From Candidatus Poribacteria bacterium (lineage in GTDB: Bacteria > Poribacteria > WGA-4E > JAJDTR01), in contig CBDCTK010000002.1 of the NCBI GenBank assembly GCA_965222225.1, positions 5,294,977 to 5,358,976 on the forward strand: a stretch of DNA of 64,000 nt. The letters are read 5' to 3'. Positions 2,131 to 60,370 of the stretch are shown here, piece by piece. Both the position numbers and the translations under genes were made by a program. The stretch's first letter is position 1. Each line of letters starts with the position of its first letter. The notes beneath the pieces were generated by a model. That model did no database searches, had not been told where the DNA came from, and worked only from the letters and a program-made list of their open reading frames with translations.

Positions 2131-2209
2131 GATCAAGCGAGCGAATAGCGAGTGCGATAGAGATCCTAAGGCGATAGTAAATCCCTTAGTGAGGGCGATA
2201 GAAATCACC
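2131..2209. repeat. Intergenic degenerate tandem array (GATCAAgCGAgcGAATAG / GAGTGCGATAGAGATCC / GCGATAGTAAATCCC units)
   Basis: Three to four units of about 19-21 bp with the core GCGATAG-N3-ATCC. Same family as the arrays at 6968, 8513, 8953, 20711, 37571, 38007, 44705, 56955, 58279, 60150 and 60321. Confidence 0.8.
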
Positions 2210-2258
2210 TCATTGCGCGTCTCGAATCGGCTGTAACATTTGGATTTTTGAAATCGTA

Positions 2259-3335
2259 TTAAACCTCCGGTACCGGGACACGATAGGATTCGGCAATTTC
2301 TACCAAACGCTTCCAGGTTTTCTCTTCGATTGGAATCCCTTCCTTCATGCGTTGGGCGCGGCTATGCGCCTCAAATTCGCCGGGAACGTAGATTTCATCC
2401 ACGCCGGGAAGCCTGTTCGAGGATTTGACCCACTCAACCATATACTCTATCTCCTCGGTGTAGGTGTCGAGATCGATGAAATCCTGTATTTTCATGACAA
2501 TCATCACAATTCCGCTCCCGCCGCGAGTTGGTTCGTCGCGGCTGCACCCCGCCCATGAGAGTCCACCGGCAATTGCATCAATCATGAATCCCAAACCAAA
2601 ACCTTTATGCCCGAATTGGAAGCCCCCCAGCGGCATCACCGCCGTATCCTCTACCCTGTCATTAAACGCGCTCGGATCCGTAACCGGGTTACCCTCCGAA
2701 TCAATCATCCAGCCCTCCGGCATCTCCTGGTCGCGTGCCGATTTGATGGCGATTTTGCCGCCAGCCACGACGCTAAGCGTCATATCAAGCATTAGCGGTT
2801 CACCGTGCTTGCGAGGGACGGCAATCGCTATTGGATTGGGGGGCAACCGTCGTGAAGTTCCCCCGAACGGGTGCATGAAGCGGTTGCCGCCGTTGAGCAG
2901 GACGATACCAATCATCCCTTCCTCCGCAGCCTGAGGTGGGTAGGTTCCCATACGTCCGGCATGACCGCAGTTGTATAGCGCTACTGCTCCCAGCGTTCTC
3001 GATTTCGCCTTTTCGATGGCGAGATCCATGGCTTTCTTCGCCGCCACCATGCCAAGCGCATCGTTGACATTGATAACGGCGCTGGCGGGGGTTTCACGGA
3101 CAATTTCCATCCGCTCCTCCGACGGTCCCGCTTTCATCGTGTCTATGTAAAAATCGGTGCGCATCACGCCGTGCGAGTCGTGACCCATAAGATTGGAATC
3201 GCAGAGGTGATCGCTGACAATTCGCGCATCCTCCTCCACCGCGCCGACGTTGATATAGATGTTGTACACCATCTCCTTAAGTGCTGCGTATGGAACATGA
3301 ACCATAAAAATTTCTCCCTTCACAGTAGTAGGCAT
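2259..3335 (-). CDS. Ldh_2 family dehydrogenase (malate/L-lactate/ureidoglycolate/sulfolactate dehydrogenase type 2)
   Basis: 358 aa. N-terminal signature …DSNLMGHDSHGV…; the overall family pattern is recognised by eye only. Confidence 0.7.
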   Translation of the reverse strand: MPTTVKGEIFMVHVPYAALKEMVYNIYINVGAVEEDARIVSDHLCDSNLMGHDSHGVMRTDFYIDTMKAGPSEERMEIVRETPASAVINVNDALGMVAAKKAMDLAIEKAKSRTLGAVALYNCGHAGRMGTYPPQAAEEGMIGIVLLNGGNRFMHPFGGTSRRLPPNPIAIAVPRKHGEPLMLDMTLSVVAGGKIAIKSARDQEMPEGWMIDSEGNPVTDPSAFNDRVEDTAVMPLGGFQFGHKGFGLGFMIDAIAGGLSWAGCSRDEPTRGGSGIVMIVMKIQDFIDLDTYTEEIEYMVEWVKSSNRLPGVDEIYVPGEFEAHSRAQRMKEGIPIEEKTWKRLVEIAESYRVPVPEV

Positions 3336-3420
3336 ACTCCGTATGCCGTACTCCGCCTTCCTTGTAAAGTCCTAAAATAGGTTTACAGATTTTATTACGC
3401 ATTACTCTTCACGTATTACC

Positions 3421-3877
3421 CCTTAAATTACCGGCACGATTTCTACGTCCGAACGTTTGGCGAACTGATCAACCGCACCGTTGAAAACACCTCTGCTGCC
3501 ACGAACCAAATCCTCGCCGCGAGTCACGCTAAAGTTCTCATACGTCGTAGGATTGGGGTGAGACGAATTGGTTTCCTGAAAGTAGTGGGCAACAATGATT
3601 TTAGGCGTGACGTTCTCCTTGATTCAGGTTCGGGTTCCTGATACCAATTTCATTCATCAACTGTGTTAACTCCAAGTTGATTTAGGGCTTCCTTCAAAAG
3701 AAGATTTTTCAGTCCATCGGACCCGTACGTTCTATCGAAAAACTACACCGCGTCCTTGTTTTCGTCCAATCCTCTGCCACTCAACACTTCCCACAGATCC
3801 GCCGCAAAGACCTCTTGGGTGAGTCTTCCTTCTAAAATATCACTGTGCGGCACAGCAATTGTGTGGAAGGGATTCAT
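3421..3877 (-). pseudogene. Decayed gene remnants: a 44-aa N-terminal fragment (MNPFHTIAVPHSDILEGRLTQEVFAADLWEV…, stop after 44 aa) plus a downstream protein-like fragment (…IIVAHYFQETNSSHPNPTTYENFSVTRGEDLVRG…)
   Basis: Manual minus-strand translation gives clearly protein-like segments interrupted by stops. There is no intact ORF of 60 aa or more between the Ldh_2 gene and hepT. From memory the N-terminal motif resembles a defence-associated ATPase family (DUF499-like); this is unverified. Coordinates are approximate because the printed sequence line at 3781 is short. Confidence 0.35.
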
Positions 3878-3914
3878 TTGCGTAGCCCCTTAATCATCTG
3901 TTCAATCTTCAGCT

Positions 3915-4220
3915 TCAGAGCCGGCATATCTGATTGCACGATTTCCCAAACAATCTCAATATTGTGACATCGAAATATCCGTGAATGAGAATGTCTCTTA
4001 AGCCGGCAATTTTTCGCCACTCAACACTTGGATACTCCTCTCGAAGGGACTCAGGCACCTGTTTGACAGCTTCACCAATGACTTCAATGTTTTGGATAAT
4101 CGCGTCAAATCGCATCCGATCAGATTCAAACTCCGTGCGAGTGATTCCCTGCATGTACGCTTGAATTCGATTGATTGCTTCTAAAACATCTTCAAGGTAA
4201 ATCTCATAGTTTCGCGACAT
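3915..4220 (-). CDS. hepT: HepT-like HEPN toxin (DUF86) of a HepT/MntA toxin-antitoxin pair
   Basis: 101 aa. C-terminal R-x4-H-x-Y motif ([11 protein letters not shown]). Overlaps the upstream nucleotidyltransferase gene by 17 nt. Confidence 0.75.
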
Positions 4221-4527: not shown

Positions 4528-4613
4528 CTCTGCTTTTCCGCGATTCTACCAGCCTAGCCTTCTTGCGCGTTGAGATAGTCAAATCTCCTCCACGGCGCGA
4601 GTCTGCGTCTACC

Positions 4614-6899
4614 CTAAGACGATTCGGTTTCTCCTTCCTCGAAAGCGCTGCGAATCTCTTTGAAAAGTGTAATGGCTTTACGTCGCCTATCGTTGGGTAA
4701 ATCACTCGCATCCGTCATTTTGCTAAGCGCTCCGTGCACTCGGATAGCCAACGATTCCTTGGTGATTTCTATACCCTTGTCTTCCATAAATCGCTCGATT
4801 CCTTCCCAGATTACGCCTTCACCGCGTAAAGAAATCTCATTCACATTCGCAAGTGCTAGTTGCTTGCTGTAAGCATCCATAAGATCCTCTGCAAAAAAAT
4901 CCTCCGAAAAGAGGTCTTCAATAGCGAAATTACCATTGGTTCCCACGGCGTCACCCAGTAACAGAGATTTGGTTTGATGAGTTTTATAAGGTGCGAGCCA
5001 TGTTTTAACCAGTTTCACCTGAGCGCTTCGTCCTTCATCATCAGAATCGAACAAGGCGACCACCTTTAACCCCTGTCCGGTCATAAATGTGGCAATATTA
5101 ACAGCCGCGAAGGAGCTTCCCCCGGGCGTGGTGAGTACATCCTCCGGCAAGCCCCCTTTCCCATCTTGTTGCAGCAAGTTAGATAATTTCGTCAGGATTC
5201 GATACTCATTGACCCCCTCTACGACAAGATTGCGTTGGGCGACCACAAAACACTGTGAAGCGTTTATTCCTAAAGCTGCCTGAAATACGCGTTTTGCTTC
5301 TGGAGGGCTCTCGGTAAAGTCAGTCGTGACAACGGTGCCATTCTTCGTTTCCATCAACACTCGGATTCGGTCCGAATAGTTCAGATCAATCATAAAAGGA
5401 AGATGAGTCGTATAGAGAAGCGTATTCCCCTCTGCATAGTGGTCAAGCCGGAGAAGTAGGTCTTTTTGGGCATCGGGATGAAGATGAAGTCCGGGTTCGT
5501 CAAGGAGAACGACACATCCTTCAAACGATCCTTGACTTTCGTGCATCAACATGAGATCGAAGGGAAAAAACCACTGAAATCCTTTCGATCGCTCCTCCAG
5601 TCGAATGAGTGCCGGATCGTGATTGTCTTTTACAAAGGTGAAGAAATGCTGGCCGTCGGCGCGGTACTCAACTTCATATTGACGCTGACGAAGTCGATTC
5701 GAAATTTTACTCGTTAGCGTGGCGGTGCCATCGTCAAGATCGAATTGGCGTTGCTCGACATGGTCCGGATTGCCCTCTTCAAGATTAACCACCTCGTCTA
5801 AGCTCGACTTTGTACAAAAGTACAATGGTTGGGTTGTACGGAAAGCCATACAACACCAAACCCGTAGGCGGGGCATCTTGCCCCGCCATGCAACACCGAA
5901 ATTCGAGTGACACCCAACACATTATCTGCATGATACTGGAAACCGCTACCGACTTTTTCAATGGTCTGCCAAAAAGCCGAGAGAATCAAAATCTCCTTCG
6001 CTTTTCGACAACACTTGATTATCGCTGCTTGTTATGTCTCTAAAATGTACAAAGTCGAGCTAAGTCGAGACCGGATAACGTAAGGAGAGCCAGAAATGTG
6101 TTATCTTCGTCTGTCAAACGATTTTGGTCGTGGCGAACTTTAATCTCATCCAGTTGAGCCGTGCCGCTAAATGCCCTGTAATCAGACATATAGACAAATG
6201 TGGGCAAATGATCTCTAACGTACTTGTGCGCTTTTGATCGAATGGTAGGCAATTGTTCAAGTGTCTGAACAAACTGCTTAAGGCTTTTACCGTAGCAATT
6301 GACGAACTTGCTCTCAATCTGCTTCAAAGGGGCCTCCGGCGATCGCACTTCGCGCAACAACGACTTGTGCTTCTGTACCAGTTTTGTCAACTCTGTCAAT
6401 TGTCCCTCATGCGCCAGGCGTCTCGCGTCTTCAAGGCATTCACCGGCGCGATGTTTAATCGGTCACCGAGCCCTTCTGGAATCTCCGGCAGGGAATAGCA
6501 GGCTTTATCGACATCGCCCGGATGATGTTCATCCGAGAGAAAATCTTCCTCAAATTCTACAGTTAATTCACCGGCATAATTTCGTGACACCTCCACACAA
6601 TCCGGAATATCTTCGCACTCCGCCATTCGACCGAGATCCGACTTCTCCCGATCTGAGAGTCTAAGCCTTACTCGACAAACCTCCTGTTTTTCGCTTCGCC
6701 CTTTTCGATGGGCACGCGGCCACTCCCGTTCCATCTGGTATGGGTCCGGATTGTACGGGTTGAGCTTATGGAGCGCCTTCAGAAGGGTAGTCTTGCCTGA
6801 TTCGTTTTTGCCAACAAACACTGTTAGAGGATTCACCTCAATCCACCCGGAGTCAAGTATTCCTTTGTACATCTTTACACGAAAGGCAATCAAGTCCAT
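4614..6899 (-). pseudogene. Disrupted OLD-family ATP-dependent nuclease (ABC-type ATPase plus TOPRIM), split into three ORF fragments
   Basis: Fragment 6396..6899 carries the Walker A motif (VFVGKNESGKTTLLKAL). Fragment 4614..5876 carries Walker B (VVLLDEPGLHLHP) and the TOPRIM motifs (VVEGVNEYRIL; LFDSDDEG). Fragments 1 and 2 are joined by a frame break (the TGA stop overlaps a TTG). Fragments 2 and 3 are separated by the MITE-like insertion at 5802..6060. Confidence 0.65.
5802..6060. mobile_element. MITE-like non-autonomous insertion (259 bp) with perfect 15-bp terminal inverted repeats GCTCGACTTTGTACA, flanked by TAA direct repeats
   Basis: Left inverted repeat at 5802-5816 and right inverted repeat (tgtacaaagtcgagc) at 6046-6060. 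TAA lies at 5799-5801 and 6061-6063. The interior has no coding capacity and carries a GC hairpin (ggcggggcatcttgccccgcc). Removing the element plus one TAA joins ORF 6040..6399 and ORF 4614..5876 in frame (…TLSGLD|LDEVVNLEE…). Confidence 0.7.
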
Positions 6900-6967
6900 A
6901 AAAAAGTTCGAAATCTCCTATCTCGTTTCTTTAATAACCCATGTTGCTACCTATCCTGTAAATCGGG

Positions 6968-7045
6968 GTCAAGCGACTGAATAAGGAGTGCGATAGTAGA
7001 TCCTGATAGAGATCCCAGTGCGATAGCTAATCCAGCGCGATGAGT
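6968..7045. repeat. GCGATAG-family intergenic array
   Basis: gagtgcgatagtagatcc / tgatagagatccc / agtgcgatagctaatcc. Confidence 0.75.
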
Positions 7046-7318
7046 TCCCTTCTAACCCGATCCCTGAACGAAATCATGATATAAAAATTGCAATACAACC
7101 CTCGAAGGAACGTTTCCCACGATTTCCGATAGGTGACGACCTGAGCTCGGTACGAGTCATTTTATCATGGCGCCGTAGCGTAAACCAACTCCATCTTGGC
7201 TATAAGGTAATCATCTAACGATCGCAATGGATCTATTCACCATCCGGCCCGGACGCGCGACGAATAGCGCTTCTACGAACCGGCGGCGATGATCGCGCAT
7301 GAATATCAACCGTGCCCG

Positions 7319-8344: not shown

Positions 8345-8444
8345 GATTTTCCTCAATGGTGTAGAACTTTGGCAATTGACGGTGCAAAGCCTGGTCGTTT
8401 GGAAATTCAACGCGAAGAACACATCAATCGCTGCAGATCTTAAT

Positions 8445-8470
8445 TATACCATTTCGCTTGAATAACAGTG
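8445..8470. repeat. Leader module TATACCATTTCGCTTGAATAACAGTG (second copy at 14599..14624)
   Basis: 24 of 26 nt are identical between the two copies, and each precedes a GCGATAG-type array. Confidence 0.7.
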
Positions 8471-8512
8471 CATATGATGCCTAAATTATATCATTCACTT
8501 TCTCCGTAAGCG

Positions 8513-8665
8513 GGGATCAAGCGAGCGATTAAGTGAGTGGACAATGAACGATCAAACGACTGAAAAAGGAGTGCGATAGTAGACCCTGATAGAGATCCTT
8601 TATGGAGTACGATAGTAAATCCCACAAAGGACATGAATAGTGACTGCGATGGAGATTCCATAGAA
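8513..8665. repeat. GCGATAG/GATCAA-family intergenic array (about 7 units)
   Basis: gatcaagcgagcgattaagtg / gatcaaacgactgaaaaag / gagtgcgatagtagaccc / tgatagagatcc / gtacgatagtaaatccc / ctgcgatggagattcc. Confidence 0.8.
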
Positions 8666-8684
8666 ACACCGTTAGGCATGTCTT

Positions 8685-8753
8685 CTGTAGGGGCGATCTC
8701 GCAATCGCGACCTTCCCCGCTCCAGCGGAAATCAGGGGATTGTCAATCGCACC
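8685..8753. repeat. Palindromic hairpin element variant (CTGTAGGGGCGATCTCGCAATCGCGACC) with CGCTCCAGCGGA module
   Basis: 5' module variant of the 1150 family. The CGCTCCAGCGGA motif recurs at 8868 and 60143. Confidence 0.6.
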
Positions 8754-8952
8754 TTGAGATACTAGCGCGACGGCCTCATCACAGTGTTCTGAGAATCACG
8801 ATGAGGTCTTCGTGTCTTGCACTCCCGGAGGAGTGCTATGTTAGTAGAAAGTAGGCCTTCCCTTCTCGCGCTCCAGCGGAGCGGCATGTATATCCTTCGA
8901 TTGGCGAGCACGCAGGTTCGGTGTAATTGCTCCAACGATTCTCGGCTATGGG

Positions 8953-9012
8953 GGATCAATCGAGCGGTAAGTGACCGATCAACTGAGCGAACAGCGAAGG
9001 CGATAGAGATCC
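8953..9012. repeat. GATCAA/GCGATAG-family array
   Basis: gatcaatcgagcggtaag / gatcaactgagcgaacag / cgaaggcgatagagatcc. Confidence 0.75.
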
Positions 9013-9157
9013 TATTCAGACAATTACCGAAATACCCCTGCCTTATACCTCATTCTTTTAGGGAATAGACCACCAAGTTAAGAATTTTGCGACGGAAATC
9101 CCACCAATACTTGACGAACTCTCTTAAATTAATCCCTATGCCAACAATATTACCCCT

Positions 9158-10123
9158 CTATCTCTTTTTAATCAGCTTCTGGAACGACCGAAGTTCACGA
9201 GGTGGATCCATTTGACTTCCGTAGTCGCTCCAAGAAACCTCCGCAACGTAAATATCACCCTTCGAGTCAACTGCGATTCCGTGCGGCGAATAAAACCGTC
9301 CGGGTTCATCACCGTAAGATTGGTCGCTCAATTGTGACAAAATATTGCCCTTGAGATCCATGATGGTTACGCGAGGACCTAGGTTGGTGCCGATACGATT
9401 ACTGCCAATTCCGCAGAAGTATTCTCCAACGTAAATCAGCGGTTCATCCTTCATGTCAATACAGATGCACGCCGCGCGCGACAAATTTACCCACTGCGTT
9501 TCGTATTTGCCGTTTGGGTCGAACACCTGTATTCGGTGATTCTCGCGATCCGCGATGTAGACCCAGCCGTCCTTGTCTACGACGATGTTGTGAACGATAT
9601 TGAATTGTCCCGGCCCCGTGCCAGATTCTCCCCAAGAAAACAGGTGTTTTCCATCCGGCGAAAATTTGTGCACCCGCGCATTCGCGTAACCGTCCGCGAC
9701 ATACAAACCCCCGTCGCGTGGATCAACTGCACTGTGCGTCGGCAAGTTAAACGGAATACCGCCCATTGCCGGTGAAGGCTTGTTCGCTTCTCCCAAGGTT
9801 AACAGCAGTTTTCCGTCGGGAGTAAACTTGCGAACCGTATGATCGCCATTGTCAACACAGTAGACCATGGCATCAGGTCCAATGGTTACCCCATGCGGAT
9901 TTCCGAATATACCGTCGCCCCACGTCCGGAGGACATTCCCGTCAGGGTCTAGTACGACCATTGGGTGAGTGCCGCGATTGAAGACGTAAACGTTGTCTTT
10001 TTCGTCCACGGCGACAGCGGTAGCTTCTTTGTAGGTCCAGTTCTCTGGAAGATTGCCCCAATCCTCCCCGGACGTTTCATAGCCATAATCTTCGTTGCCT
10101 AGAGTAACCATATCTTTCCTCAA
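9158..10123 (-). CDS. NHL-repeat six-bladed beta-propeller protein
   Basis: Repeated …Y(V/I)AD..N.R(V/I).(F/V)…DGK… blades (GNPHGVTIGPDAMVYCVDNGDHTVRKFTPDGK; YVADGYANARVHKFSPDGK; YIADRENHRIQVFDPNGK). Confidence 0.7.
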   Translation of the reverse strand: MRKDMVTLGNEDYGYETSGEDWGNLPENWTYKEATAVAVDEKDNVYVFNRGTHPMVVLDPDGNVLRTWGDGIFGNPHGVTIGPDAMVYCVDNGDHTVRKFTPDGKLLLTLGEANKPSPAMGGIPFNLPTHSAVDPRDGGLYVADGYANARVHKFSPDGKHLFSWGESGTGPGQFNIVHNIVVDKDGWVYIADRENHRIQVFDPNGKYETQWVNLSRAACICIDMKDEPLIYVGEYFCGIGSNRIGTNLGPRVTIMDLKGNILSQLSDQSYGDEPGRFYSPHGIAVDSKGDIYVAEVSWSDYGSQMDPPRELRSFQKLIKKR

Positions 10124-14598: not shown

Positions 14599-14698
14599 TA
14601 TACCATTTCGTTCGAATAACAGTGGATAGAGCGAAATAACTATTTCGTTAGGACTTATGCGATGGAGCATCCGGTAGGAGCGATCTCCGAATCGCGAC
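14599..14698. repeat. Composite repeat: TATACCATTTCG leader module, then a GCGATGG unit, then a palindromic-element 5' module (GTAGGAGCGATCTCCGAATCGCGAC)
   Basis: Juxtaposes modules from both repeat families. Confidence 0.7.
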
Positions 14699-20658: not shown

Positions 20659-20688
20659 GTACATTTGTAGGGTGGGCACTGCCCACCC
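20659..20688. repeat. Hairpin module GTACATTTGTAGGGTGGGCACTGCCCACCC (second copy at 37956..37984)
   Basis: 7-bp stem (GGTGGGC / GCCCACC) around an ACT loop. Both copies sit directly upstream of GATCAA/GCGATAG arrays. Confidence 0.7.
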
Positions 20689-20710: not shown

Positions 20711-20833
20711 GACCGATCAGCTGAGATCAACCGAACGATCAACTGAGTGGATAACGAAGGCGATAGTAAATCCTACAGTGGGGGATCAAGTGAGTGGACA
20801 ACGAACGCGATAGCTAATCCCGATAGAGATCCT
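20711..20833. repeat. GATCAA/GCGATAG-family array (about 6 units)
   Basis: gatcagctgagatcaaccgaac / gatcaactgagtggataacg / aaggcgatagtaaatcc / gatcaagtgagtggacaacg / aacgcgatagctaatccc / gatagagatcc. Confidence 0.8.
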
Positions 20834-24509: not shown

Positions 24510-27500
24510 TCACGCTTCCGACTCCGGGGTTTCGGCTGCTGCTTCATCGTGAGGGCTGCTAGACGAAGTCGCGTCTTCGGCAACTTGTTCTTGCGCCTCC
24601 GTGTCTACCTTGGAAGTCTCTTCTTCTGGAGATGGTACAACCTCAAAGGTTATCTCGTTTTCCACATGTTTGCATTTAACGAAAACGATATCTTTCTCCT
24701 GCCGATAAAGCCAGCCGGATTCAGCCGCTTCCAAATCTTCTACGCAGGGCAGATCCTGACCGAGGGCTCTCACCGCGCTTGGAATACTACCATACCCCGT
24801 GATGATAGTGTGGCTTGTTTCATTGTGTACATAACACAGTTTGAAATCCAACTTTCCGTTGCTGCCCTTGTCGCTGGTTTCTATCTGGGCTCCGCTGCTT
24901 AAGTGGATACGCCCGTTCTCATGACGTATGATTGACGTGGAGATGTCCGGATCCTGCCCACGCAAAGTGTATAGGTTTGCCATAATGCTACCAGGGTTGA
25001 TATGCGGTGGGCGTCCCTCTGTACAGAATTCATGAAGACTGTCTGGGTATGTTCCTCTGAATTCGCCCTCCGTCCATTGCTGGTGCATACCGCTATGCGT
25101 AATGCCTTCGGCAATACCCGTCCAATCACATCGCTGGCTATGGCGTGCAAGATGCTGCAAATGGTACGCGAAAACAAGACCACTCCGTTGTGATGCAACC
25201 CCAAACCACGCGCGAGTATCGAAGGTTGTTCCGAATATGGGAACGGAGGCGAAACGCATGGCGGGACGATCCGGCAGATTCCAGTGATAAATGAAAGCCA
25301 GCCCGGCTTTTGCCCAATATTCTGCACATGCAATATGGCGCTTATCATCGGTTATCGTGTAGGCTTCAACATACGCGCCGACAGCATTGGCTGCGGCAAG
25401 GAGATTCGGAGTCTTCGGCGGACAATCCGACGCTTGAGCGCCGCGCGGAATTTTAAACCGGTCCATGCCCTTTAGCGCCTTTAATCCGGCGTTCAATGAG
25501 TTCTCATTCCCCGAGATTCTGGCGTGCTTTAATAGGATGAAGGCGCAATGCGCACAAATTCCTAGAACTGTGTCGTTGTCTCCTCCGAGTTCTTTCGCGC
25601 TTTCAGTTATGGGGCGGTAACGCCAACGTCCATCATCCTCCTGCGTCTCAATTAAATTCTGGGTTGTTTCTTTAAGGCGTTCTAAGCCCGCTTCGATGTT
25701 GCCGAAGTAAAACGGTAGTTCCCAGTTTAAGCTTTGGCGCTTCACTGCAGCGATCGGCCCTCCTGCCCTCGATTCGCGAACCGTGTTTCCCGCGATGGCA
25801 AGGGCGTGTTGCTTCACATCATCGTTTCGCGTTGCAAGATAGTCGTACCATAGCAGCGTTGCAATCCCTGGGAGGTTCGCTGCCGCCGAATCAACAGTTT
25901 GCTGAGGTTCACCGGTATTTTCATTCCTCGCCTCCCGCATAATCCCGTCTCGTGAGAGCGCAAGCTGCTCCTCGTGATTCCGCAGAGATTCAAGTGGTTC
26001 AGGCGCGCCGTACGTATCGGTCCAATGCGAGACAGCATCGGAAATAGAGGCGTTGCCGTCAATAATAATGTGTGCACTAATCGTAAGTTGTCGGTTTGCC
26101 TCCAACGTGTACGGCGTAGATGCCTCTAAGCAATTTTCCTCAACCCAGTCACCCGGTGCCGGAAGAAACAACCCCATCAGATGATTCTGATGCTTTTCAT
26201 GCCAATTCGGCGAGGCAAAAACAGCGGATAGCATCGTGTGTTCGCCATCCCAAGTTTCCAATGGGTCCCATGCCAAACCAACCAGCGTTTTCTTGTACTC
26301 AACCGCCATCAGAGGAACGGTAATCTTATAGGGATGTGGAACGAGACGGTTATTATATGGCGGTGCCGCATCTCGCGTATTTGAGGAAGGTTCATCTGTT
26401 CCTAAGAACTCCAGTCCGGGAAAAAGGGCTGCACTTTTGCCCTCCCCGTAACTACGATCGCCTGCGTGAAGCATCGGGCCATTAAAAGCGAGAATCTCCC
26501 GCCGAGCGCTGGTTGAAAGGCAGTATTCCGTGCGCACGCGTTTGTCATCCTCGGTCAACGAAAAACGGGCCTCAAAACACCAATTCACACCGTCGGCATC
26601 CTGTTGTTCGCCAGCGAGGATAACAGTTGACTCCCCAAAGCTATTTCCCGCGAGACGATAGATTGTGGGTATAATACGGAGTTGTTCGGTTTCGTTCTTT
26701 GAATTTCGATACCGAATCGTTGTCATCGCATGACTTGTGGCAACTTGACGATAGCTCCCGTGTTTGGCGGCAAAAAGCGTGAAATACTCAAACCCGCGTG
26801 TACCTTGAACGAAAAGAAGTCGCACGTGCTTGTTCCCAATCACTACATGTTCTTGGAGGTTGTATGTGTGTAATTCCGGAACTATCTGAGAAGGGACCTT
26901 CGGTGACGCCGGCTGAATTTCAATAAAGGTTTCAAGCGTTTGCCGTACCTCGCCCATTGGCGTTTTGTACTTCAGCAAGATGGAAATCTGAGTTGCGGAC
27001 TCGCGTGAAAATCTGCGGAGATTCCATACTAATTTGGTTTCGTCGCCGGCATCTAGCGTCTTAATCGGATAGACATGCCGCCCGCGGCGTAGCTTCACCT
27101 GGTTAATTGCCACACTCGTTTGATTTGCGGGGGAGAGAGCAACCGTTCCCGTGTTACGGAGTGTGCACTGCACCTCAAAATCTTCACTCACGGTAACAAT
27201 TGCCGTGTTGAGTCCTAAACTTGATACCTCTAATTTGGGCAATTCTGTATACAGTGCCACACTGAACTCTTGGGAAGAGAGTTCGGTTGAAAACCCTCTC
27301 CTTTGAGTCTCGACAACCATGCGTTGACCGATTTCGTCGGCAATCTTGGATACAGGTGTTGGTGATTCGTAAGCAAACTCCATGGCGGATATTTTGCCGT
27401 TTGGTCCATCGGTTGATTCGTGGACATGAATGCCATCCTCTCCAATCTGCTTCATATCATTGAAACTTCCGATGATGATTCCCTTTATGGCAGTTGGCTC

Positions 27501-37327: not shown

Positions 37328-37570
37328 TTCTTTCTCCTTAGTTTTTTGCGGTAATGATGGAAAGAGAAACTGTCCTCTGCAAATCTCAAAATTGGATTGT
37401 GCAAGCCTGCCGATAAAAGATTGAAGGTGACCAATGTAGTCGGATTTACGTATAAAATTTTAGACCAATTTGATTATATTTAGATCGGCTATAGTATAAT
37501 ACAATTTAGAGTAGCAAATCAAACTTTATTTGGTCTGCAGGACAATCGCCCCAGACCCTAGAAGATTAAC

Positions 37571-37628
37571 CGACCGGATAGCGAATGCGACAATACTTCC
37601 ATAGAGATCTCAGTGCGATAGCAACCCC
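37571..37628. repeat. GCGATAG-family array
   Basis: ggatagcgaatgcgacaatacttcc / atagagatctc / agtgcgatagcaacccc. Confidence 0.7.
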
Positions 37629-37955
37629 GATGACCAAGCCGTCGATTGTCCCTAATTATCTTGTCATTCAATCGTTGCTCCTTTCTTCAACTAAGTCAGT
37701 GGAAATCAAGAAAGGTAATCCTACAAAATTTACGCACCGACCTACGTCAAGAAAAGATGAACTTCGCATGGGGGAGGCAGATGTATTGAAAACACGAAAG
37801 TCACAGCAATGGGCAGGACAAGGTTTAAGGTTTGATGGCGTGCAAACCATCAGCAACTGTTCAGAATTGGTTCGCGCACATTGTTTTATTCTTGAATAAC
37901 CGCTGACATCCTATCGACAAATAAATCGTCGTAACCCTAAGAGCCTGTTTGAAAA

Positions 37956-38130
37956 GTACATTTGTAGGGTGCGCACTGCGCACCAACCTCTAAAAGCCCC
38001 AGAGTGGGATCAAGGGAGCGAATAGCGACTGCGATAGAGATCCATGAAGGTGTATAGAAACGCCAAAACCCCGTGCACCTAAGCCCCAGCGGGGATCAAA
38101 CGAACGGATAGTGAGTGCGATAGCAATCCC
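37956..38130. repeat. Composite: GTACATTTGTAGGGTGCGCACTGCGCACC hairpin module plus a GATCAA/GCGATAG array
   Basis: gatcaagggagcgaatagcgactgcgatagagatcc … gatcaaacgaacggatagtgagtgcgatagcaatccc. Confidence 0.8.
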
Positions 38131-38272
38131 ATAGGTACGTAGCAGGCAACAATTAAGACATGGAAGAACTTCCCACAAATGACCAAAAATGGCTTTCCTA
38201 TCGATTATTCAAACAGGTTCTAAACGAAGACCGGGGGAATGGATGCAGAGAATTGCAACTCGCCTCAATTCC

Positions 38273-39034
38273 CTACCATGTTGCGAAGTCCCTGAGAAAT
38301 AAGACTACCTCTGCTGTAATGGCGTTCAGTAAAGATTCGCCCTTTTCCGCAGTCGCGTGTTGAGGTCCTCCCATTGCGCCGGTTGGTGTCCAAGTATTCA
38401 TCCGTTTGGCGACATTGACTCGCCCGCCCTGTTCGCTATGGAAGAACGGCGAGTCCACTAGAGGGGGGCTTGACGTGACTCTGTCCATCCGCATAATCTC
38501 GCCGTGCAACGATAACATCATGGAGGTCTCGTATTCGCAGGCGTGTGATAACTGTTTCGTCTGCATGCCGTGGTTTTCCGCCGCCATGACGGGCGATGCG
38601 ACTGACCAATAGGACGCCAGTGCCATCCAGAGATTGTTGTACACTTCGGATTCGGTAGACAACTCCGTAATCGCCTGTGTGCCTGGAATGACATTGCCGC
38701 CGTGACCGTTCAGGAAGAAAATCCGTTGAAATCCCGCTTTGCTAATAGAACGTACGATGTTCTTAATGATTAATGTATAAACATGATTGGGAACGCTCGT
38801 CGTTCCGGGCAAATCAAGATGATGATCTGATGCGCCAAGCCACAGCGTCGGTAGAAAGTACGTCTGCTCACGAAGCTCTTGTTCGACACGTTCGGCGACC
38901 ACGGTGACCAAATACGTGTCCGTTAGGAGCGGGGAATGGTGGCCGTGCTGCTCCATTGAACCAAGCGGAACCACAACAACTTTATTCTTGTCCGCTTGCT
39001 CAATATCCACCCAACAACCATCACCATATTTCAC
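38273..39034 (-). CDS. Creatininase-family amidohydrolase
   Basis: …VVVVPLGSMEQHGHHSPLLTDT… metal-binding signature. 253 aa. Confidence 0.75.
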   Translation of the reverse strand: MKYGDGCWVDIEQADKNKVVVVPLGSMEQHGHHSPLLTDTYLVTVVAERVEQELREQTYFLPTLWLGASDHHLDLPGTTSVPNHVYTLIIKNIVRSISKAGFQRIFFLNGHGGNVIPGTQAITELSTESEVYNNLWMALASYWSVASPVMAAENHGMQTKQLSHACEYETSMMLSLHGEIMRMDRVTSSPPLVDSPFFHSEQGGRVNVAKRMNTWTPTGAMGGPQHATAEKGESLLNAITAEVVLFLRDFATW

Positions 39035-41083: not shown

Positions 41084-41914
41084 TTAGCGGCTAACCCGCT
41101 TACGTCTTCCCGCAACATGCGATGCTGGGACGCCTACCTCCTCCACAGGACTGGAAGACCTCCGTGCAGTTCCATAAATAATCCAACTACCAACGATTGC
41201 CAATGCAATACTAATTAGTTGTGCTGTCGTCAACCCGGCGATGACACGCTCACTCGCCCGCCAGAACTCGGCAATGAAACGTTCAACTCCCGCCGCTACA
41301 AGTCCCGCGCCCACCAGCCACCCGGCTATCCCCTCTTTCTTTTTACGGATTGACCATAGTAGTGCAAAACCGACGAGCGACAATCCAAATTCATACAGGG
41401 GCGTTGGGTGAACGGGCACGTTTATGGGAACCGTGCCTCTTGGAAATGGCATTGCCCAAGGCAAATCCGATGGCGGACCATAGTCACCATCCCCAGAGAG
41501 GAAACATCCGATTCGTCCAATGCCATATCCGAGTAAAAGTAGAGGAGCAAGAGCGTCAAGCGTTGGCAAGAGAGGGTCGGAAGATCGATGTATGACCCAG
41601 ATCGCGGCTGCAAACCCTCCAATTAGACCACCATACCACACAAGCCCGCTGTTTGAGAACAATTCTCTTAATGAAAGGCTGCCATCTTGCAGGGATGAAT
41701 AAAGTTTTGCGCCAATGATACCGCCTAAAGCGCCCCATAAAATAATAGATGAGGCAAGCCTAGGCTCAAGTCCTTTTCGTTTGAACTCGCGTTGCCCCAT
41801 ATACATACAAGTAAGGAAGGCAAGCGCCATCATCAACCCATAACTGTGTACCGCTATAGGTAGGTGGATCGGGCCAAGGTGTAGGGTTGGTAACTCAAAT
41901 ATGGTTGGATACAT
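41084..41914 (-). CDS. lgt: Prolipoprotein diacylglyceryl transferase
   Basis: Lgt signature (…VHPTPLYEFGLSLVGF…), the G-x-R-x-G pattern and a polytopic membrane topology. 276 aa. Confidence 0.85.
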   Translation of the reverse strand: MYPTIFELPTLHLGPIHLPIAVHSYGLMMALAFLTCMYMGQREFKRKGLEPRLASSIILWGALGGIIGAKLYSSLQDGSLSLRELFSNSGLVWYGGLIGGFAAAIWVIHRSSDPLLPTLDALAPLLLLGYGIGRIGCFLSGDGDYGPPSDLPWAMPFPRGTVPINVPVHPTPLYEFGLSLVGFALLWSIRKKKEGIAGWLVGAGLVAAGVERFIAEFWRASERVIAGLTTAQLISIALAIVGSWIIYGTARRSSSPVEEVGVPASHVAGRRKRVSR

Positions 41915-42264
41915 GATTCATCACGAAAAAGAGAGATGGTTGTCTCATTCACCCGCAGCAACATCTTTTAAAGGTAGGCAAAACATCCAAAGCACAACCG
42001 AAACTGTGTGCTAAAATCCTAATATCCACCCAAACCGCTACTGCGCCATTAGAATATTCGACCCCCTAAAAAATGTCAAGCAGAATCTCGCTCCTAATTC
42101 GTCTGTTTTTTTTGAAAAAGGCTTTGCAAACTTTTCTGAAATGTGCTATACTTGGCGCATCCAACTTCCGAGAGACGCTAGGAGCGTTATACCGCAAGGG
42201 TTTTCCTCTGTTTTGTAGTATTCTCTGCAACGTGCCTCAGGTATTGGAAAGGGTAGCAGCATTT

Positions 42265-44361: not shown

Positions 44362-44419
44362 CTGTAGGAGCGATCTCCCGATCGCGACCGCCTGTCGCTA
44401 GGAAAGCTCGCTCCTACAG
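44362..44419. repeat. Palindromic hairpin element, compact copy (CTGTAGGAGCGATCTCCCGATCGCGACC … CTCGCTCCTACAG)
   Basis: Perfect 11-nt outer inverted repeat. The 5' module is identical to the 1150 copy. Confidence 0.8.
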
Positions 44420-44704
44420 AAGACGCGCAATAAATTGCACTACGATGAATCAAACTGCATAAATCCTATATGTGTAATTCTCAGTTGTAATGACTATAAT
44501 TGTAGGGGACGGCCCCCCCCATGGTTGTAAAGGACAACCATGACTGTGCCGAGGCGGCGGCGTGCAATCTTCTCGGAGACCGATTGGGAGGTATCTGTTG
44601 CGAGAGGATGAACTCAGGGAAGGATTCCGGCTAAGGGAGGAAATCGGCGATTTGATGATCGCGCAGATTCCACACAGAAACAGGGGTGATTTTATCCGCT
44701 AGTG

Positions 44705-44775
44705 ATTAACTGAGCGAATAGATCAAACGACTGAACAAGGAGTGTGATAGAGATTCCGAGGCGATAGCAATCCCA
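44705..44775. repeat. GATCAA/GCGATAG-family array
   Basis: ttaactgagcgaatagatcaaacgactgaacaag / gagtgtgatagagattcc / gaggcgatagcaatccc. Confidence 0.75.
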
Positions 44776-46313: not shown

Positions 46314-46317
46314 GGCT

Positions 46318-55732: not shown

Positions 55733-55760
55733 TTTTTTCCCATATTTAGGAGGCGAAATT

Positions 55761-56807: not shown

Positions 56808-56954
56808 GCGCTGTGCATTGCTCACATTAACTCGGAACTACCACGGGTGAATCGACAAGCAGGTTTGCCGTTCAAGGGTTATAACAATCTCTTGAACGGC
56901 AGAATCTGGGAGTTTGTTTGAAACTTTATTTTGGGTAGAGTCATTTGCCTTGAA

Positions 56955-57003
56955 ATCAATCATGGGAATCGATAGTAATTGCGATAGAGCTCCTATAGAG
57001 ATT
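56955..57003. repeat. GCGATAG-family array, interrupted at its 3' end by the IS insertion
   Basis: aatcgatagtaat / tgcgatagagctcc / tatagagatt. Confidence 0.7.
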
Positions 57004-58252
57004 CGGAATTAGTAGCTTGTAGCTTTTAGACTGACGACAAACATAAAACTTGGTACCCTGTCGTAAATCTTTTCGTCGCACGTAGATGTCCATAGTGACT
57101 ATTCTTCTCGTAGGAGTTTGCTATGGACATTTTGAATCTTATGAAAGAGTTTCCAAATCAAGAATCTTGTCTCAGATTTATAGAGGAAAAACGTTGGAAG
57201 GACGGTGTTTGCTGTATCCACTGTGGCAGTGAAAAAGTTGGACGCAAGAACAGAAACGACATTACTACTGGTTGGAATTGCTACGATTGTGAATCTAGCT
57301 TTTCGGCTACAGCAGGAACCATCTTCCATGGTACCAAGATACCTCTCCAGAAATGGTTTTTGGCTATCTCAATCCTTTCCAATGCCAAGAAAAACATATC
57401 GAGTTGTCAGCTTGCTCGTGACTTGGACATGAATCAAAAGTCCGCTTGGTATATGGCAATGCGCCTCCGTGAGAAAATGAGTGATAGTGATGAATTGCTG
57501 AAAGGGATAGTTGAAGCGGACGAAACCTATGTCGGCGGCAAACCCAGAGCAAAATCTAAGAGAGGTAGAGGCACAAATAAATCTCCCGTCATCGGCGTAG
57601 TCGAGAGAGGCGGTCGGGTGGTTGCTAAATTCATGAAGGTTCTATCTGGTGAAAATATCAGAGAATTCATCCTTAGCAATGTCTCACCCGATGAGTCTAT
57701 TCTTATGACTGATGAATTTCGCTCTTACAATAGTCTGGACGAAGATATCGAAAGACATGTTATCCATCACCAAGAGAGATATGTTTCTGAGGACGGCGTA
57801 ACTCACACCAATACCATCGAGTCGGTTTGGGCTTGTGTCAAGAGGTCATTCTACGGAACGCATCATCACTACAGCAAGAAGTGGCTGCCACTGTATATCA
57901 TGGAGTCTTGCTGGAAATATAATCGCAGAAAAGATGATGAGATTTTCATAAGATTTTTTGATGAATGCTTCACCTGAGCCACATGAATTGTTTGGCTATC
58001 GGTATATTCTGTCAACGACAGCATCATGGTATGATGTAAATCCCATAGTGTTGGAAATTAAAATCCCGCAGATAACCCGCAATGCTCCCGCGAGCATGTA
58101 CAAACGCTTGGTCAACATGATATGCCTCCATTTCTCTCTTATAGAGATGTATTTTAGTGTGAATCAAGATTCCGAACACTGTCTAAAGTTATTGTACATT
58201 AAGAAAAGAAAAGCAAGCAAATCAACCAAAAAGCAGTTAACTACTAAGTCCC
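57004..58252 (+). mobile_element. IS1595-family insertion sequence (1249 bp) with imperfect 23-bp terminal inverted repeats and an 8-bp target-site duplication TAGAGATT
   Basis: Left end CGGAATTAGTAGCTTGTAGCTTTT matches the reverse complement of the right end (GGGACTTAGTAGTTAACTGCTTTT) at about 17 of 23 positions. Direct repeats TAGAGATT at 56996-57003 and 58253-58260. An 8-bp duplication is typical of IS1595. Confidence 0.8.
57123..57977 (+). CDS. IS1595-family (ISXO2-like) DDE transposase
   Basis: N-terminal zinc ribbon (CIHCGS…CYDCES), then …QKWFLAI… and ADETYVGGK, characteristic of IS1595/ISXO2 transposases. 284 aa. Confidence 0.85.
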   Translation: MDILNLMKEFPNQESCLRFIEEKRWKDGVCCIHCGSEKVGRKNRNDITTGWNCYDCESSFSATAGTIFHGTKIPLQKWFLAISILSNAKKNISSCQLARDLDMNQKSAWYMAMRLREKMSDSDELLKGIVEADETYVGGKPRAKSKRGRGTNKSPVIGVVERGGRVVAKFMKVLSGENIREFILSNVSPDESILMTDEFRSYNSLDEDIERHVIHHQERYVSEDGVTHTNTIESVWACVKRSFYGTHHHYSKKWLPLYIMESCWKYNRRKDDEIFIRFFDECFT

Positions 58253-58278
58253 TAGAGATTTCCTCAAACGAGTGACTA

Positions 58279-58415
58279 GATCAATCGACTGAATAAAGAA
58301 CACGGTAGAAATCGCGCTGTAATAGGGTTCCCATAAAAATTTTCACCAGCCTTTGAAAGGCCCTGCGTGAGATCAAGCGAGCGGATAGCGATTCCCTAGG
58401 TGTATAGCAATACTA
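58279..58415. repeat. GATCAA/GCGATAG-family array, the continuation of the array split by the IS
   Basis: gatcaatcgactgaataaag … gatcaagcgagcggatagcgattccc. Confidence 0.7.
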
Positions 58416-58699
58416 AGTCACTTCACATCAAATTCCAGGCGGGGCGGCAAGTGTATAACAACTGAGGTAAGTGTTTGTGCCGTTTTCTTGGATAGCTCCC
58501 GCTGCCGACCCTTGGTTCCAGAGAATAAAACAGAGGAACGACATGCTGCACGGTGTCGGAAACCGCTGTCAACTATTTAAATGGTCAATCAACAAGGCCA
58601 GATAATCGAAATCTTCCCTGCTTTTGTTCAACGCTTGATTGGCGCTGTATGTTGTGCCGTTCGAATGTAAAGAGTCGAGCTAATACCTTATGAGAAATT

Positions 58700-60004
58700 A
58701 TGATGCTCTCTAGACAGATATTCCGCATAGTTTTCATCTCTATACTGATTGTGTGCGCGGTGGATTCGGCGCGATCACGCACATTCGATCAAATTATCGC
58801 CTATGTCAATGACGAAGTCATAACGAATTGGGAACTTGAAAACTTGGTGAAGCAGCGTGCCCTCGAACTTATCCAAATCCACAATTTTAGTAAGCGTGAA
58901 GCAGCCGAAAAAGCGCGACAAGAACGACATGAACTGCTGGATCGCTTGATTCGCCAGATGCTTCTTGTGGAAACAGCCCTGACCTTGAAGGTTGAAATTA
59001 CTAACGAAGAATTGGAGATGCATATCAAAACCTTCAAGCAACGAGCAAAGATCGAGACACAAGAAGAATTCGTCAAGCAATTGAAAGAGGAAGGTTATAC
59101 CCTAACCGGTTTCCGTGAACAGTCCAAGCGAAACCTGATGGCAGAACGACTTCTGGAAAGGCGAATTTTTCCAAGATTGCAGGTCAGGGATAGCGATGTC
59201 TTAAAGTTTTTTGAAGAAAACCGCGATCGATTTACAACCAAATCGGATAACCTGCAGCTGAGGCACATCCTTATTGCGTTTAAGCCCTCCGAAGCCGATC
59301 GAGAGGAGGCATTAAATAAGGCGGAGGTCGCTTTTCAAGCAGCTAAAGACGGAGCCGATTTCGAGGCGCTTGCAAAACGCTATTCTAAAGGGCAGCACGG
59401 GGACCTAAAGCCGGGGCCTGCGATCGAATTAACGATTGATGATGTCGATACACTCCCTAAGCCGTTTCGCGAATCGCTCCAAATGCTAAATGAAAACGAC
59501 ATTGGCGATCCGGTTGAAGACAAGAATGAAATCTTTATTTTCAAGATAGAACGCAAGACCGTCCAAACTGTTGAATTCCGCTATCTTGTCATCAGGTTAA
59601 CCGTGGGGGAAGAAGCTATCCAAGCTGCTCAAGAGCGCGCCGATCTTGTTTATCAGAAACTTATACAAGGGGAAGATTTCAATGCCTTGGCAAGCCGCTA
59701 CTCGGACGATACACAAACAAAAGCGAATGGCGGAGATCTCGGCAGTCATTCAATTAATAAGTTGGCTCCCGAAACGCGAAACGTAGTAGAAAAACTCGAA
59801 GTCGGAGAGTTTCAAGCCCCTGTCAAAATGAAGTTTGGCTTCCAAATCTTTAAAGTCGATGCTCGGACGCCGCCAGAATTGAACGATGTAGAAAAAGATC
59901 AAATCCGTTCGATGCTGCGTCAACAGAAATTCGAGGAAGAATGGAAAGTGTACACGGACATGCTGCTTGGGAACGCCTATGTAAAAATCAAACCCCTTGA
60001 CTAA
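58700..60004 (+). CDS. surA: Peptidyl-prolyl isomerase SurA-like chaperone with two parvulin (PpiC) domains
   Basis: Signal peptide, SurA N-terminal domain (FDQIIAYVNDEVITNWELE…) and two PpiC-type domains (…LQLRHILIAFKPSEAD…GDLKPGP…; …FRYLVIRLTV…GGDLGSHS…). 434 aa. Confidence 0.8.
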   Translation: MMLSRQIFRIVFISILIVCAVDSARSRTFDQIIAYVNDEVITNWELENLVKQRALELIQIHNFSKREAAEKARQERHELLDRLIRQMLLVETALTLKVEITNEELEMHIKTFKQRAKIETQEEFVKQLKEEGYTLTGFREQSKRNLMAERLLERRIFPRLQVRDSDVLKFFEENRDRFTTKSDNLQLRHILIAFKPSEADREEALNKAEVAFQAAKDGADFEALAKRYSKGQHGDLKPGPAIELTIDDVDTLPKPFRESLQMLNENDIGDPVEDKNEIFIFKIERKTVQTVEFRYLVIRLTVGEEAIQAAQERADLVYQKLIQGEDFNALASRYSDDTQTKANGGDLGSHSINKLAPETRNVVEKLEVGEFQAPVKMKFGFQIFKVDARTPPELNDVEKDQIRSMLRQQKFEEEWKVYTDMLLGNAYVKIKPLD

Positions 60005-60026
60005 GCGGTTTATTTTCTAAGTATTT

Positions 60027-60370
60027 AAGGCTTACGGGACTAGCACAACAGACTAGTTCCGCAACCCCTGCAGGACAAGTTTCCAGTTCGCCCCCGGAGA
60101 TCTGCCACTTAACTACGGAGGCATATAATACTGCTACAAGCGTTTCGCTCCAGCGGAGATCAAAGGAGTGAATAACGACTGCGATAGGGATCTTCCATTT
60201 TACCCTGTCTTAGTAGTCTATTCTCCAGCTAGTTAATACTTACGACTGCCACAAGAGACATGTTTCGCAACCCCTACGAGCCTTTACGCATAGCCAGTTC
60301 TAATCCGTGAAATCCTTTAATCCGATCAACTGACTGGACAAGGAAGGCGATAGGGAATCCTGATTCAGAC
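60027..60370. repeat. Tandem duplication of an intergenic block of about 170 bp, each copy ending in a GATCAA/GCGATAGGGA unit
   Basis: Copy 1 runs about 60027-60200 (ttaaggcttacgggactagcacaacagac…gcgatagggatcttcc). Copy 2 runs about 60234-60370 (ttaatacttacgactgccacaagagac…ggcgatagggaatcctg). Copy 1 also contains CGCTCCAGCGGA. Confidence 0.65.

Follow-up and report, generated by a model that had tools for sequence, protein, structure and literature searches.

The short intergenic arrays of the 64,000-nt stretch of Candidatus Poribacteria DNA analysed here (hereafter the window; assembly GCA_965222225.1, contig CBDCTK010000002.1, positions 5,294,977 to 5,358,976) are built from an element of about 36 nt, here named AB (module A plus module B), and the family that these copies form is real, restricted to the phylum among the matches listed, and apparently undescribed, being a variant of the kind represented by repetitive extragenic palindromes (REPs) and miniature single-strand transposons. 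Its distinguishing features are a mini-hairpin with a G·A mismatch, an apex-directed and polar nesting in other repeats, and nesting within itself. The explanation favoured here, with no more than moderate confidence, is that the arrays consist of copies of a miniature element, non-autonomous and specific to Poribacteria, that works as single-stranded DNA, in the manner of REPs and bacterial interspersed mosaic elements (BIMEs), and that is probably mobilised by an enzyme of the Y1 HUH type.

All knowledge of Poribacteria, sponge symbionts that have not been cultivated, comes from single-cell and metagenomic assemblies. The anatomy of AB was defined on a stack of 189 copies, taken from the window and from 114 loci, about 1 Mb of DNA, fetched from Candidatus Poribacteria metagenome-assembled genomes (MAGs; the loci are designated L001, L008 and so on). 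AB consists of GATCAA, a 17-nt hairpin, and GCGATAG-N2-4-ATCC. Module A comprises GATCAA and the 17 nt N1N2-GA-N5N6-GRAYA-N12N13-GA-N16N17, with the invariant ATCAA as the 5' flank of the hairpin; module B is (G)CGATAG, two to four variable bases and ATCC(C), and it is often reiterated. The single AB is the commonest form, with 123 of 246 elements, and ABB, AABB, ABBB, AAB and AAABBB are also seen. As for the spacing, the initial annotation had described units of 19-21 bp with a periodicity of two helical turns; instead, the step is 23 nt between two A units, 25 nt from an A to a B, and 11, 13 or 17 nt between two B units, and Tandem Repeats Finder detects almost none of the arrays.

The A hairpin is specific to one strand and maintained by selection. 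Among 183 distinct 17-mers, the stem pairs 1:17, 2:16, 5:13 and 6:12 are Watson-Crick in 70-86% of the cases, the rest being mostly G·T, and more than 93% of the 17-mers have G·A at 3:15 and A·G at 4:14, making the tandem mismatch essentially invariant. In an alignment of 140 sequences, pairing was found in 95% of the cells, compared to 64% in column shuffles and 24-60% with slid partners, and double-sided changes occurred in 212 cells versus 43 expected; no shuffle reached the observed values. Mutual information was restricted to the four stem pairs (z 39-64), and the two short helices varied almost independently of one another, of the flanks and of the B spacer; guide-target pairing was ruled out, given that the variable positions of the hairpin share no mutual information with the flanks or the B spacer. 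G·T and T·G pairs (80) exceeded A·C and C·A (20), mostly at 1:17 and 6:12, and therefore the structure belongs to the strand as written. Finally, the GATC...GATC flanks, together with runs of G and C, are able to close a short outer helix.

Regarding its abundance, the motifs GCGATAGNNNATCC and GATCAANCGANYGRA, with one mismatch at most, match the window 10 and 19 times versus 1.0 and 0.7 expected, respectively, a strong enrichment for both. A stricter expression for the A unit has 18 matches on the + strand and none on the - strand; for GCGATAG the counts are 18 and 3. The covariance model R1, built on 140 distinct AB copies, gave 11 window hits at E <= 1e-4, the intact copies (starting at 2131, 6967, 8550, 8977, 20737, 20784, 38008, 38094, 44721, 60158 and 60324), and five weak or decayed ones (8625, 37570, 56954, 58279 and 58371), every one of them on the + strand. 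Twelve of the 13 loci listed by the initial annotation hold members of the family according to this model; the remaining one, at 14640, has only the B-like word GCGATGGAGCATCC beside an ordinary REP and gave no hit. Of the 24 intergenic regions that reach 150 bp, only 10-11 contain units, fewer than the almost every longer region of the earlier description. Over the fetched loci the model gave 191 hits in 100 loci, and predicted open reading frames (ORFs) contain only 13 of 218 AB clusters.

The range of the family was explored with a 30-nt degenerate pattern having 20 specified bases, run over 185,579 species genomes (596 Gb), in which about 0.5 occurrences are expected by chance according to our estimate. 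At least 114 stretches in at least 14 assemblies were retrieved and, among the matches listed, all were Candidatus Poribacteria MAGs; the same pattern had no match in viral contigs or in the metagenome contigs of the Joint Genome Institute (JGI). The Rfam 15 covariance models gave no match over the window at gathering thresholds, with only chance-level hits (E > 1) on one array, and full-text searches combining Poribacteria with repeat terms gave nothing relevant. In the literature searched, no description was found of a non-coding guest of 36 nt hosted both by REPs and by copies of itself.

AB resides at or near the apexes of repeat hairpins, in one polarity and with the loss of few target bases. 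Very often AB is flanked by one half of another repeat on each side, as in GTAGGGTGG/AB/CTGCCCACC, GGTAGGTGC/AB/TCTAACCGCACC, GCACTCCAGAGGA/AB/GTGCAATGT, GCCCCAGAGGG/AB/ACAGGTGTA and CCGTAGGCGGG/AB/CTTGCCCCGC. Within 16 nt upstream, GTAG is present in 69 of 242 elements and CTAC in only 4 of 242; this GTAG belongs to the upstream host repeat and not to AB. Over five asymmetric host families, either GTAG-type REPs or IS200-like hairpins, the polarity of AB equals that of the host in a ratio of 53:0, the only apparent exceptions being located in a palindromic host. For 61 elements, an uninterrupted paralogue of the host exists in the sampled DNA, and each time AB replaces 2-5 nt near the apex of the hairpin, typically beginning with G (GA, GC, GG, GCA, GCG or GGTT), with no target duplication in the comparison of filled and empty sites. 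The AB junctions display a preference for G or GA only, and no flanking position is informative. Insertion at GATC sites, in a Sau3AI-like manner, was ruled out, as most host sites have no GATC.

Copies of AB differ in presence between species, and AB nests within itself. Orthologous intergenic regions are essentially unalignable though the genes are 84-87% identical, and the arrays are placed differently within them. The hairpin at 8868-8884 is empty in the window, and its orthologue in L008 carries an AB (L008 401-436, 57.2 bits); likewise, L053 has an AB of 34-36 nt (1179-1214) that is missing in the orthologous L045, in an alignment with 83% identity and a near-identical shared array. This L053 copy lies within a resident A hairpin, immediately 3' of the loop, and the same geometry recurs in the window at 44704-44774, where the inner AB lies just 3' of the outer hairpin loop and the deletion of 44722-44756 restores a correctly paired outer hairpin, CT-GA-GC-GAATA-GC-GA-GG. 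Such recursive self-nesting produces A'-[AB]-B, which is read as AABB. At L083 5796-5967, five near-identical 34-bp AB units follow a TTGTAG head, arranged head to tail with GATCC/CCAAACG junctions; this looks like a recent tandem amplification, so that plain duplication also occurs besides self-nesting. The window array at 20784-20832 and its orthologue in L066 have the same orientation and the same constant positions, with different stem letters, and identical AB alleles are found in different host contexts and in different genomes. Hypermutation of the stem was ruled out for short timescales, because the L045 and L053 arrays and their flanks show only scattered substitutions besides the AB indel. 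With 142 of 162 AB units distinct, the family is old and diverse, and not the product of a recent burst.

As for the enzymes available in these genomes, three Y1_Tnp (PF01797) genes, all confirmed by Pfam, are present in the fetched DNA, each flanked by a host repeat family (Table 1), and therefore AB is hosted by the families of REPs and miniature IS200 ends that belong to resident single-strand transposases. The repeats around the L105 gene are REP doublets forming hairpins (REPINs), of a family related to the GTAGGAGCGATCTCCCGATCGCGAC REP of the window. A second copy of the 3' part of the L048 gene follows it, at 6286-6555, and each of the two ends beside a GTAGGG(C/T)GGGCACTGCCCACC REP; it appears that the tail of the gene was duplicated together with its REP. 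In the window, at least three families of GTAG-tagged REP hairpins are present in uninterrupted form (at 1152, 8687, 14674, 20667, 37964 and 44364, all +), namely GTAGGGTGSGCACTGCSCACC, GTAGGAGCGATCTCC...TCGCGAC and GTAGGGGCGATCTCGCAATCGCGAC, and these families also border Y1_Tnp genes at other Poribacteria loci. No autonomous partner was found in the fetched loci: the ORFs located between two AB copies, whether these share a polarity or not, are metabolic genes of the ordinary kind; in addition, ORF clustering over the fetched loci revealed no recurrent AB-adjacent family, except for a large paralogous one unrelated to mobility. One very large paralogous protein family accounts for 58 of the 1752 ORFs of the fetched DNA, with some members above 1300 aa (L001 1196-5743, L013 2887-6924, L014 2662-5469).

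The orientation of AB is independent of that of the genes. In the frame of AB, both flanking genes are co-oriented with it in 50 cases and both are antisense in 58, and the pair is divergent in 42 and convergent in 17; the paired fraction of the hairpin is 0.946 when AB is antisense to the genes and 0.924 when it is sense, and the sequences upstream are heterogeneous halves of repeats with no shared promoter. An element working at the mRNA level was accordingly rejected, both orientation and pairing being independent of gene direction. A regional polarity exists instead, and it is common to all the repeats of the single-strand type. The AB copies of the window remain on the + strand on both sides of the point near 42 kb where gene orientation and GC skew switch; more precisely, at about 41900-42100 both change sign, between lgt (-) and dprA (+), and this point is the cumulative-skew minimum of the window. 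Eight named uninterrupted host REPs of the window are on the + strand in a ratio of 8:0, the net polarity of REPs agrees with that of AB across loci in 44 cases versus 22, and neighbouring elements more than 200 bp apart lie on the same strand in 56 of 81 cases. Replication direction may set this regional polarity.

Table 1. AB copies and uninterrupted host repeats of the window, and Y1_Tnp genes of the fetched Poribacteria loci; bits refer to hits of the covariance model R1.
Feature	Position	Strand	Details
AB and two further B units	2131-2209	+	A 2131-2153; B at 2154, 2171 and 2195; hit 2131-2166, 61 bits, E 9e-8
AB with GGTCAA head, then 2-3 more B units	6967-7050	+	hit 6967-7002, 41.4 bits; motif hits at 6990 and 7020
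Composite nested array with host head CCGTAAGCGGG	8515-8660	+	3'-truncated A 8515-8549; intact AB 8550-8585 (48.4 bits); B 8586-8623; decayed AB 8625-8658 (16.2 bits)
Empty host hairpin GCGCTCCAGCGGAGCG, IS200-end-like repeat	8868-8884	+	alignment of window 8423-9160 with L008 1-752
3'-truncated A, then intact AB	8954-9012	+	A 8954-8976; AB 8977-9012, 57.4 bits; abuts ATTCAGACAATTA repeat at 9014
Uninterrupted GTAG-type REP GTAGGGTGGGCACTGCCCACC, AB host family	20667-20687	+	just upstream of the next array; same family flanks the Y1_Tnp gene in L048
Array with two AB	20711-20832	+	two 3'-truncated A heads 20716-20736; AB 20737-20772 and 20784-20819 (55.8 and 50.2 bits); B 20820-20832
Decayed AB(B) copy, GATTAACCGACCGGATAGCGAATGCGACAAT...GTGCGATAGCAACCCC	37564-37632	+	weak hit 37570-37590, 9.9 bits; motif hit
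AB within GCCCCAGAG-GGGCG...AAGGTGTATAGAAAC host repeat	38008-38043	+	58.4 bits; paralogous empty sites have GGGCG at the junction
AB within second copy of GCCCCAGCGGGG host repeat	38094-38130	+	57 bits
Uninterrupted GTAG-type REP GTAGGAGCGATCTCCCGATCGCGAC, host family	44364-44388	+	more + copies at 1152, 14674 and 8687 (variant)
Self-nested pair	44704-44774	+	outer AB 44704-44721 and 44757-44774; inner AB 44722-44756; hit 44721-44756, 51.3 bits
Decayed copy just upstream of IS1595-family transposase gene	56954-57010	+	12.7 bits
Two decayed copies	58279-58394	+	58279-58332 and 58371-58394; 17.4 and 18.1 bits
AB within CGCTCCAGCGGA host hairpin	60158-60193	+	52.8 bits
AB abutting ATTCAGACAATTA repeat	60324-60360	+	50.8 bits; context as at 8977-9033
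Y1_Tnp gene	L105 3848-4354		GTAGGAGGGAATTCCGATTCCCGAC...GTCGCGATTCGGAGATCGCTCCTAC doublets on both sides; classical REPtron; one upstream REP carries an AB
Y1_Tnp gene (RAYT-like)	L048 5565-6140		between GTAGGGTG(C/G)GCAC...CACC REPs
IS200-like tnpA	L011 1456-1980		bracketed by CGCTCCAGCGGAGCG hairpins

The window itself is an ordinary segment of a bacterial chromosome, with about 49% G+C and housekeeping genes (UvrB, Mfd, SurA, Lgt, DprA, an NtrC-type regulator and sulfite reductase); a scan for tRNA and tmRNA gave no tRNA genes, and three of the fetched loci are collinear with parts of it at 84-87% nucleotide identity, which places the window in this candidate phylum (taxid 265317); an exact look-up of one window protein retrieved no record. 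Some neighbours of the arrays deserve mention. A repeat of about 60 nt that begins with ATTCAGACAATTA is found at 9014-9075 and 60363-60425 (+), directly 3' of AB at both sites; it has no exact copy in the 114 fetched loci, and a variant occurs in L079. The gene of an IS1595-family (ISXO2-like DDE) transposase (57123-57977, +) lies between the decayed copies at 56954-57010 and 58279-58332, and the insertion sequence (IS) may have inserted into or beside an old AB array. The neighbouring ORFs 4614-5876 and 6396-6899 (-) share an AAA_15/AAA_21 (AbiEii/OLD-like) ATPase between them, the first carrying its C-terminal half and the second its N-terminal half, which suggests a split or disrupted gene, with the array at 6967 just upstream. 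A 104-aa ORF (37585-37899, +), with no Pfam match, begins within the decayed array at 37564-37632 and is probably spurious; finally, a 1440-aa ORF (24510-28832, -) has no Pfam match at E <= 1e-3.

Compared to known systems, AB resembles REPs, REPINs and BIMEs for being short, very abundant, intergenic, lineage-specific and hairpin-forming; its stem covaries around a conserved irregularity and has an invariant 5' flank, with a similar strand-specific logic, and AB combines modularly with other motifs in genomes where genes of REP-associated tyrosine transposases (RAYTs) have REP flanks. The differences are that the stem of AB has only 2+2 bp around the tandem G·A mismatch, whereas REP stems have 7-20 bp; that no AB-based REPtron was found, the three Y1_Tnp genes in about 1 Mb being flanked by other repeat families; that AB lies inside REPs and replaces their apex nucleotides, instead of standing beside them; and that AB is enriched between divergent genes over convergent ones, while REPs are reported mainly downstream of genes (PMC3733652). 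Inverted AB doublets, which are REPIN-like, occur in L025, L032, L051, L058, L026, L028 and L043, and none is present in the window. In the OZ240245.1 and OZ242351.1 lineages, the inverted doublets have the form A-B'...B'-A, with a different B module, GCGATAGTCTT...; they are found at L058 1681-1759, 5475-5553 and 6336-6414, at L025 1161-1288 and in L032, some of them in very short intergenic gaps. Having no GT[AG]G and no demonstrated REPtron, AB was not filed as a REP. The lineage-specific REP/BIME-like mosaic suggested by the initial annotation stands in outline, with regard to the occurrence in Poribacteria only, among the matches listed (at least 114), the modularity with GTAG-type REPs and the Y1 genes with REP flanks; AB itself has no GT[AG]G tag, no cognate RAYT was found in the fetched loci, and AB behaves like a component of such systems of which it is not a demonstrated member.

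The likeness extends to the IS200/IS605 elements and to palindrome-associated transposable elements (PATEs), which AB recalls in having neither terminal inverted repeats nor target-site duplication, in its strand-specific behaviour, and in a hairpin, here subterminal, with a conserved irregularity; an IS200-like tnpA flanked by a host hairpin family is present as well (L011). Unlike IS200/IS605, AB has one type of hairpin and not distinct left-end and right-end ones, it is about 36 nt long, it has no fixed target of 4-5 nt, and target nucleotides are lost at insertion. Repeat hairpins are the preferred targets of some insertion sequences, such as IS1397 and ISKpn1 in the loops of palindromic units and the IS110-family ISPpu9/10 (PMC1525189, PMC12288879), and the nesting of one repeat family in another has already been described (PMC3733652, section 7); in those cases the guest is a full-length coding IS or a REP, whereas here it is a 36-nt non-coding element, hosted by REPs and by itself. 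Other classes were discarded. A miniature inverted-repeat transposable element (MITE) of the DDE type is not compatible with ends, GATCAA and ATCC, that share only GATC, with filled and empty sites that show no duplication, or with a fixed polarity within hosts, not expected of a transposase acting on duplex DNA. An array of clustered regularly interspaced short palindromic repeats (CRISPR), which the initial annotation had correctly excluded, is not supported either, as the AB units abut or are irregularly spaced and differ from each other, and Tandem Repeats Finder detected no such arrays. BOX elements of Streptococcus pneumoniae are modular, with a variable number of internal units and modules of 45-59 bp; AB arrays are likewise modular, and BOX elements are not known to have a covarying G·A-mismatch mini-hairpin or to be nested in REPs.

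In the favoured explanation, AB would act as single-stranded DNA on one defined strand; the four Watson-Crick or G·T pairs of its hairpin, free to vary, enclose the invariant G·A/A·G mismatch and the GRAYA loop. It resides near the apex of folded repeats, namely GTAG-tagged REPs, IS200-end-like hairpins and its own A hairpin, always keeping the polarity of the host and replacing 2-5 apical nucleotides with no target duplication; recursive self-nesting, along with some tandem duplication, builds the modular arrays. Mobilisation would occur in trans by a Y1 HUH transposase (IS200/IS605 TnpA or RAYT/TnpA_REP), and/or by hitch-hiking inside REPs moved by a RAYT, and the single orientation of the window would follow from a strand bias that all repeats of the single-strand type share regionally and that replication direction may determine. 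A Y1 HUH enzyme is proposed because AB combines an invariant 5' flank with a stem that covaries and is obligatorily irregular, which matches the substrate logic of TnpA_REP and of IS200/IS605 TnpA. By analogy, TnpA_REP binds folded single-stranded REPs in a strand-specific manner, via a 5' tetranucleotide and a required stem irregularity, and in Escherichia coli the conversion of the REP bulge to regular pairs abolishes activity (PMC8266576); moreover, IS200/IS605 elements act on the lagging-strand template (PMC6006769). A bolder version, which we consider only tentatively, depicts AB as a hyperparasitic mini-transposon of single-stranded DNA that targets the apexes of REPs, of IS200-type ends and of its own hairpin in one polarity, and that therefore travels within REPs and is nested like a Russian doll; a putative poribacterial HUH or other single-strand-specific protein would recognise it as a type of substrate not described before (2+2 bp stem, tandem G·A mismatch and GRAYA loop).

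Several observations weigh against the favoured explanation. In the fetched loci, about 1 Mb, no Y1 or other transposase gene flanked by AB was found, and AB has GATCAA where a GT[AG]G tag would be expected, at 0-2 nt 5' of the foot of the hairpin. The hairpin is predicted to be thermodynamically marginal with DNA parameters and better as RNA. There is no fixed target tetranucleotide as in IS200/IS605, and the preference for G or GA and the small target loss also fit template switching; in addition, the fixed polarity per host family could partly reflect single founding insertions amplified with the host. The very high allele diversity, with few identical copies, gives no sign of a recent burst. 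Finally, AB polarity is uncorrelated with coding strand or GC skew and has a weak negative correlation with the skew at third codon positions (GC3 skew) only, and two polarity domains are only suggestive, in OZ244829.1, one of the four chromosomes mapped, with no clear pattern along the other three.

Among the other explanations, the one that dispenses with a dedicated transposase envisages replication or repair that stalls at a folded REP apex, with the nascent strand switching template to an AB through G/GA microhomology, copying it and returning, so that the apex nucleotides are replaced. The replacement of 2-5 host nucleotides with frequent GA or G overlap and no target duplication, the 3'-truncated A heads stacked ahead of a complete unit, and the lack of a cognate transposase in the fetched loci are all in its favour; we nevertheless regard it as unlikely, given that the copied segment runs very reproducibly from GATCAA to ATCC(C), that the polarity relative to the host is strict (53:0), and that a G·A mismatch and loop kept invariant among covarying stems point to recognition by a protein. 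A further alternative is that the A hairpin is an RNA motif, with tandem sheared G·A and a pentaloop of the GNR(N)A type, serving a Poribacteria-specific RNA-binding protein or RNA stability or processing, in arrays that would be transcribed; tandem G·A pairs and GNRA-like loops are classical RNA motifs. The hairpin, which is weak, appears in the minimum-free-energy fold of the top strand as RNA and not in that of the bottom strand or with DNA parameters, and G·U-compatible pairs are tolerated while A·C is rare. This possibility is distinctly unlikely in view of the random orientation with respect to flanking genes, the pairing equally conserved in antisense copies, the heterogeneous upstream sequences, the lack of an Rfam match, and a strict polarity that is relative to DNA repeats and not to genes; furthermore, the region 37900-38280, the only AB-bearing intergenic region scanned, has no promoter-like or terminator-like site.

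The two remaining alternatives assign AB a role for the cell. According to one, the copies are signals on single-stranded or hemimethylated DNA (strand-specific priming, primosome-assembly hairpins, or GATC clusters for control of the Dam/SeqA type) that selection keeps in each intergenic region, and not selfish DNA, a view consistent with the constant positions that are intact where the surroundings no longer align (window 20784-20832 versus L066), with the regional concordance of orientation and with the GATC that most AB copies carry at both ends. This is very unlikely, however, as copies are present or absent at orthologous sites and placed at different positions within the same intergenic region, decayed copies are common, many B units have no second GATC, and GATC is not enriched in the window (228 observed versus 249 expected). 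According to the other, which is the first of the two readings offered by the initial annotation, an abundant nucleoid or regulatory protein would bind the arrays as repeated sites on duplex DNA, and the recurrence of the short conserved words GCGATAG, ATCC and GATCAA in intergenic DNA is what it would predict; we judge it highly improbable, since there is no constant period and the copies lie within other repeats, independently of promoter position. Besides, the conserved positions are non-palindromic and the variable ones are complementary, hence an intrastrand hairpin and not a dimeric operator.

In conclusion, the family matters at more than one level. Extrapolating from the density in the window, hundreds of copies per genome are possible, which matters for assembly, binning and annotation, as exemplified by the probably spurious ORF 37585-37899 that overlaps an array. 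If the copies were instead selected by the host, they would mark an unknown strand-polar chromosomal signal. The family offers a natural experiment in structure-directed, strand-specific insertion, in which a 36-nt element is defined almost wholly by a mismatch mini-hairpin and selfish hairpins serve as landing pads; if a Y1/HUH enzyme is responsible, it would widen the substrate range of enzymes that are used as tools on single-stranded DNA, and it would add a second trophic level to the REP/RAYT systems.

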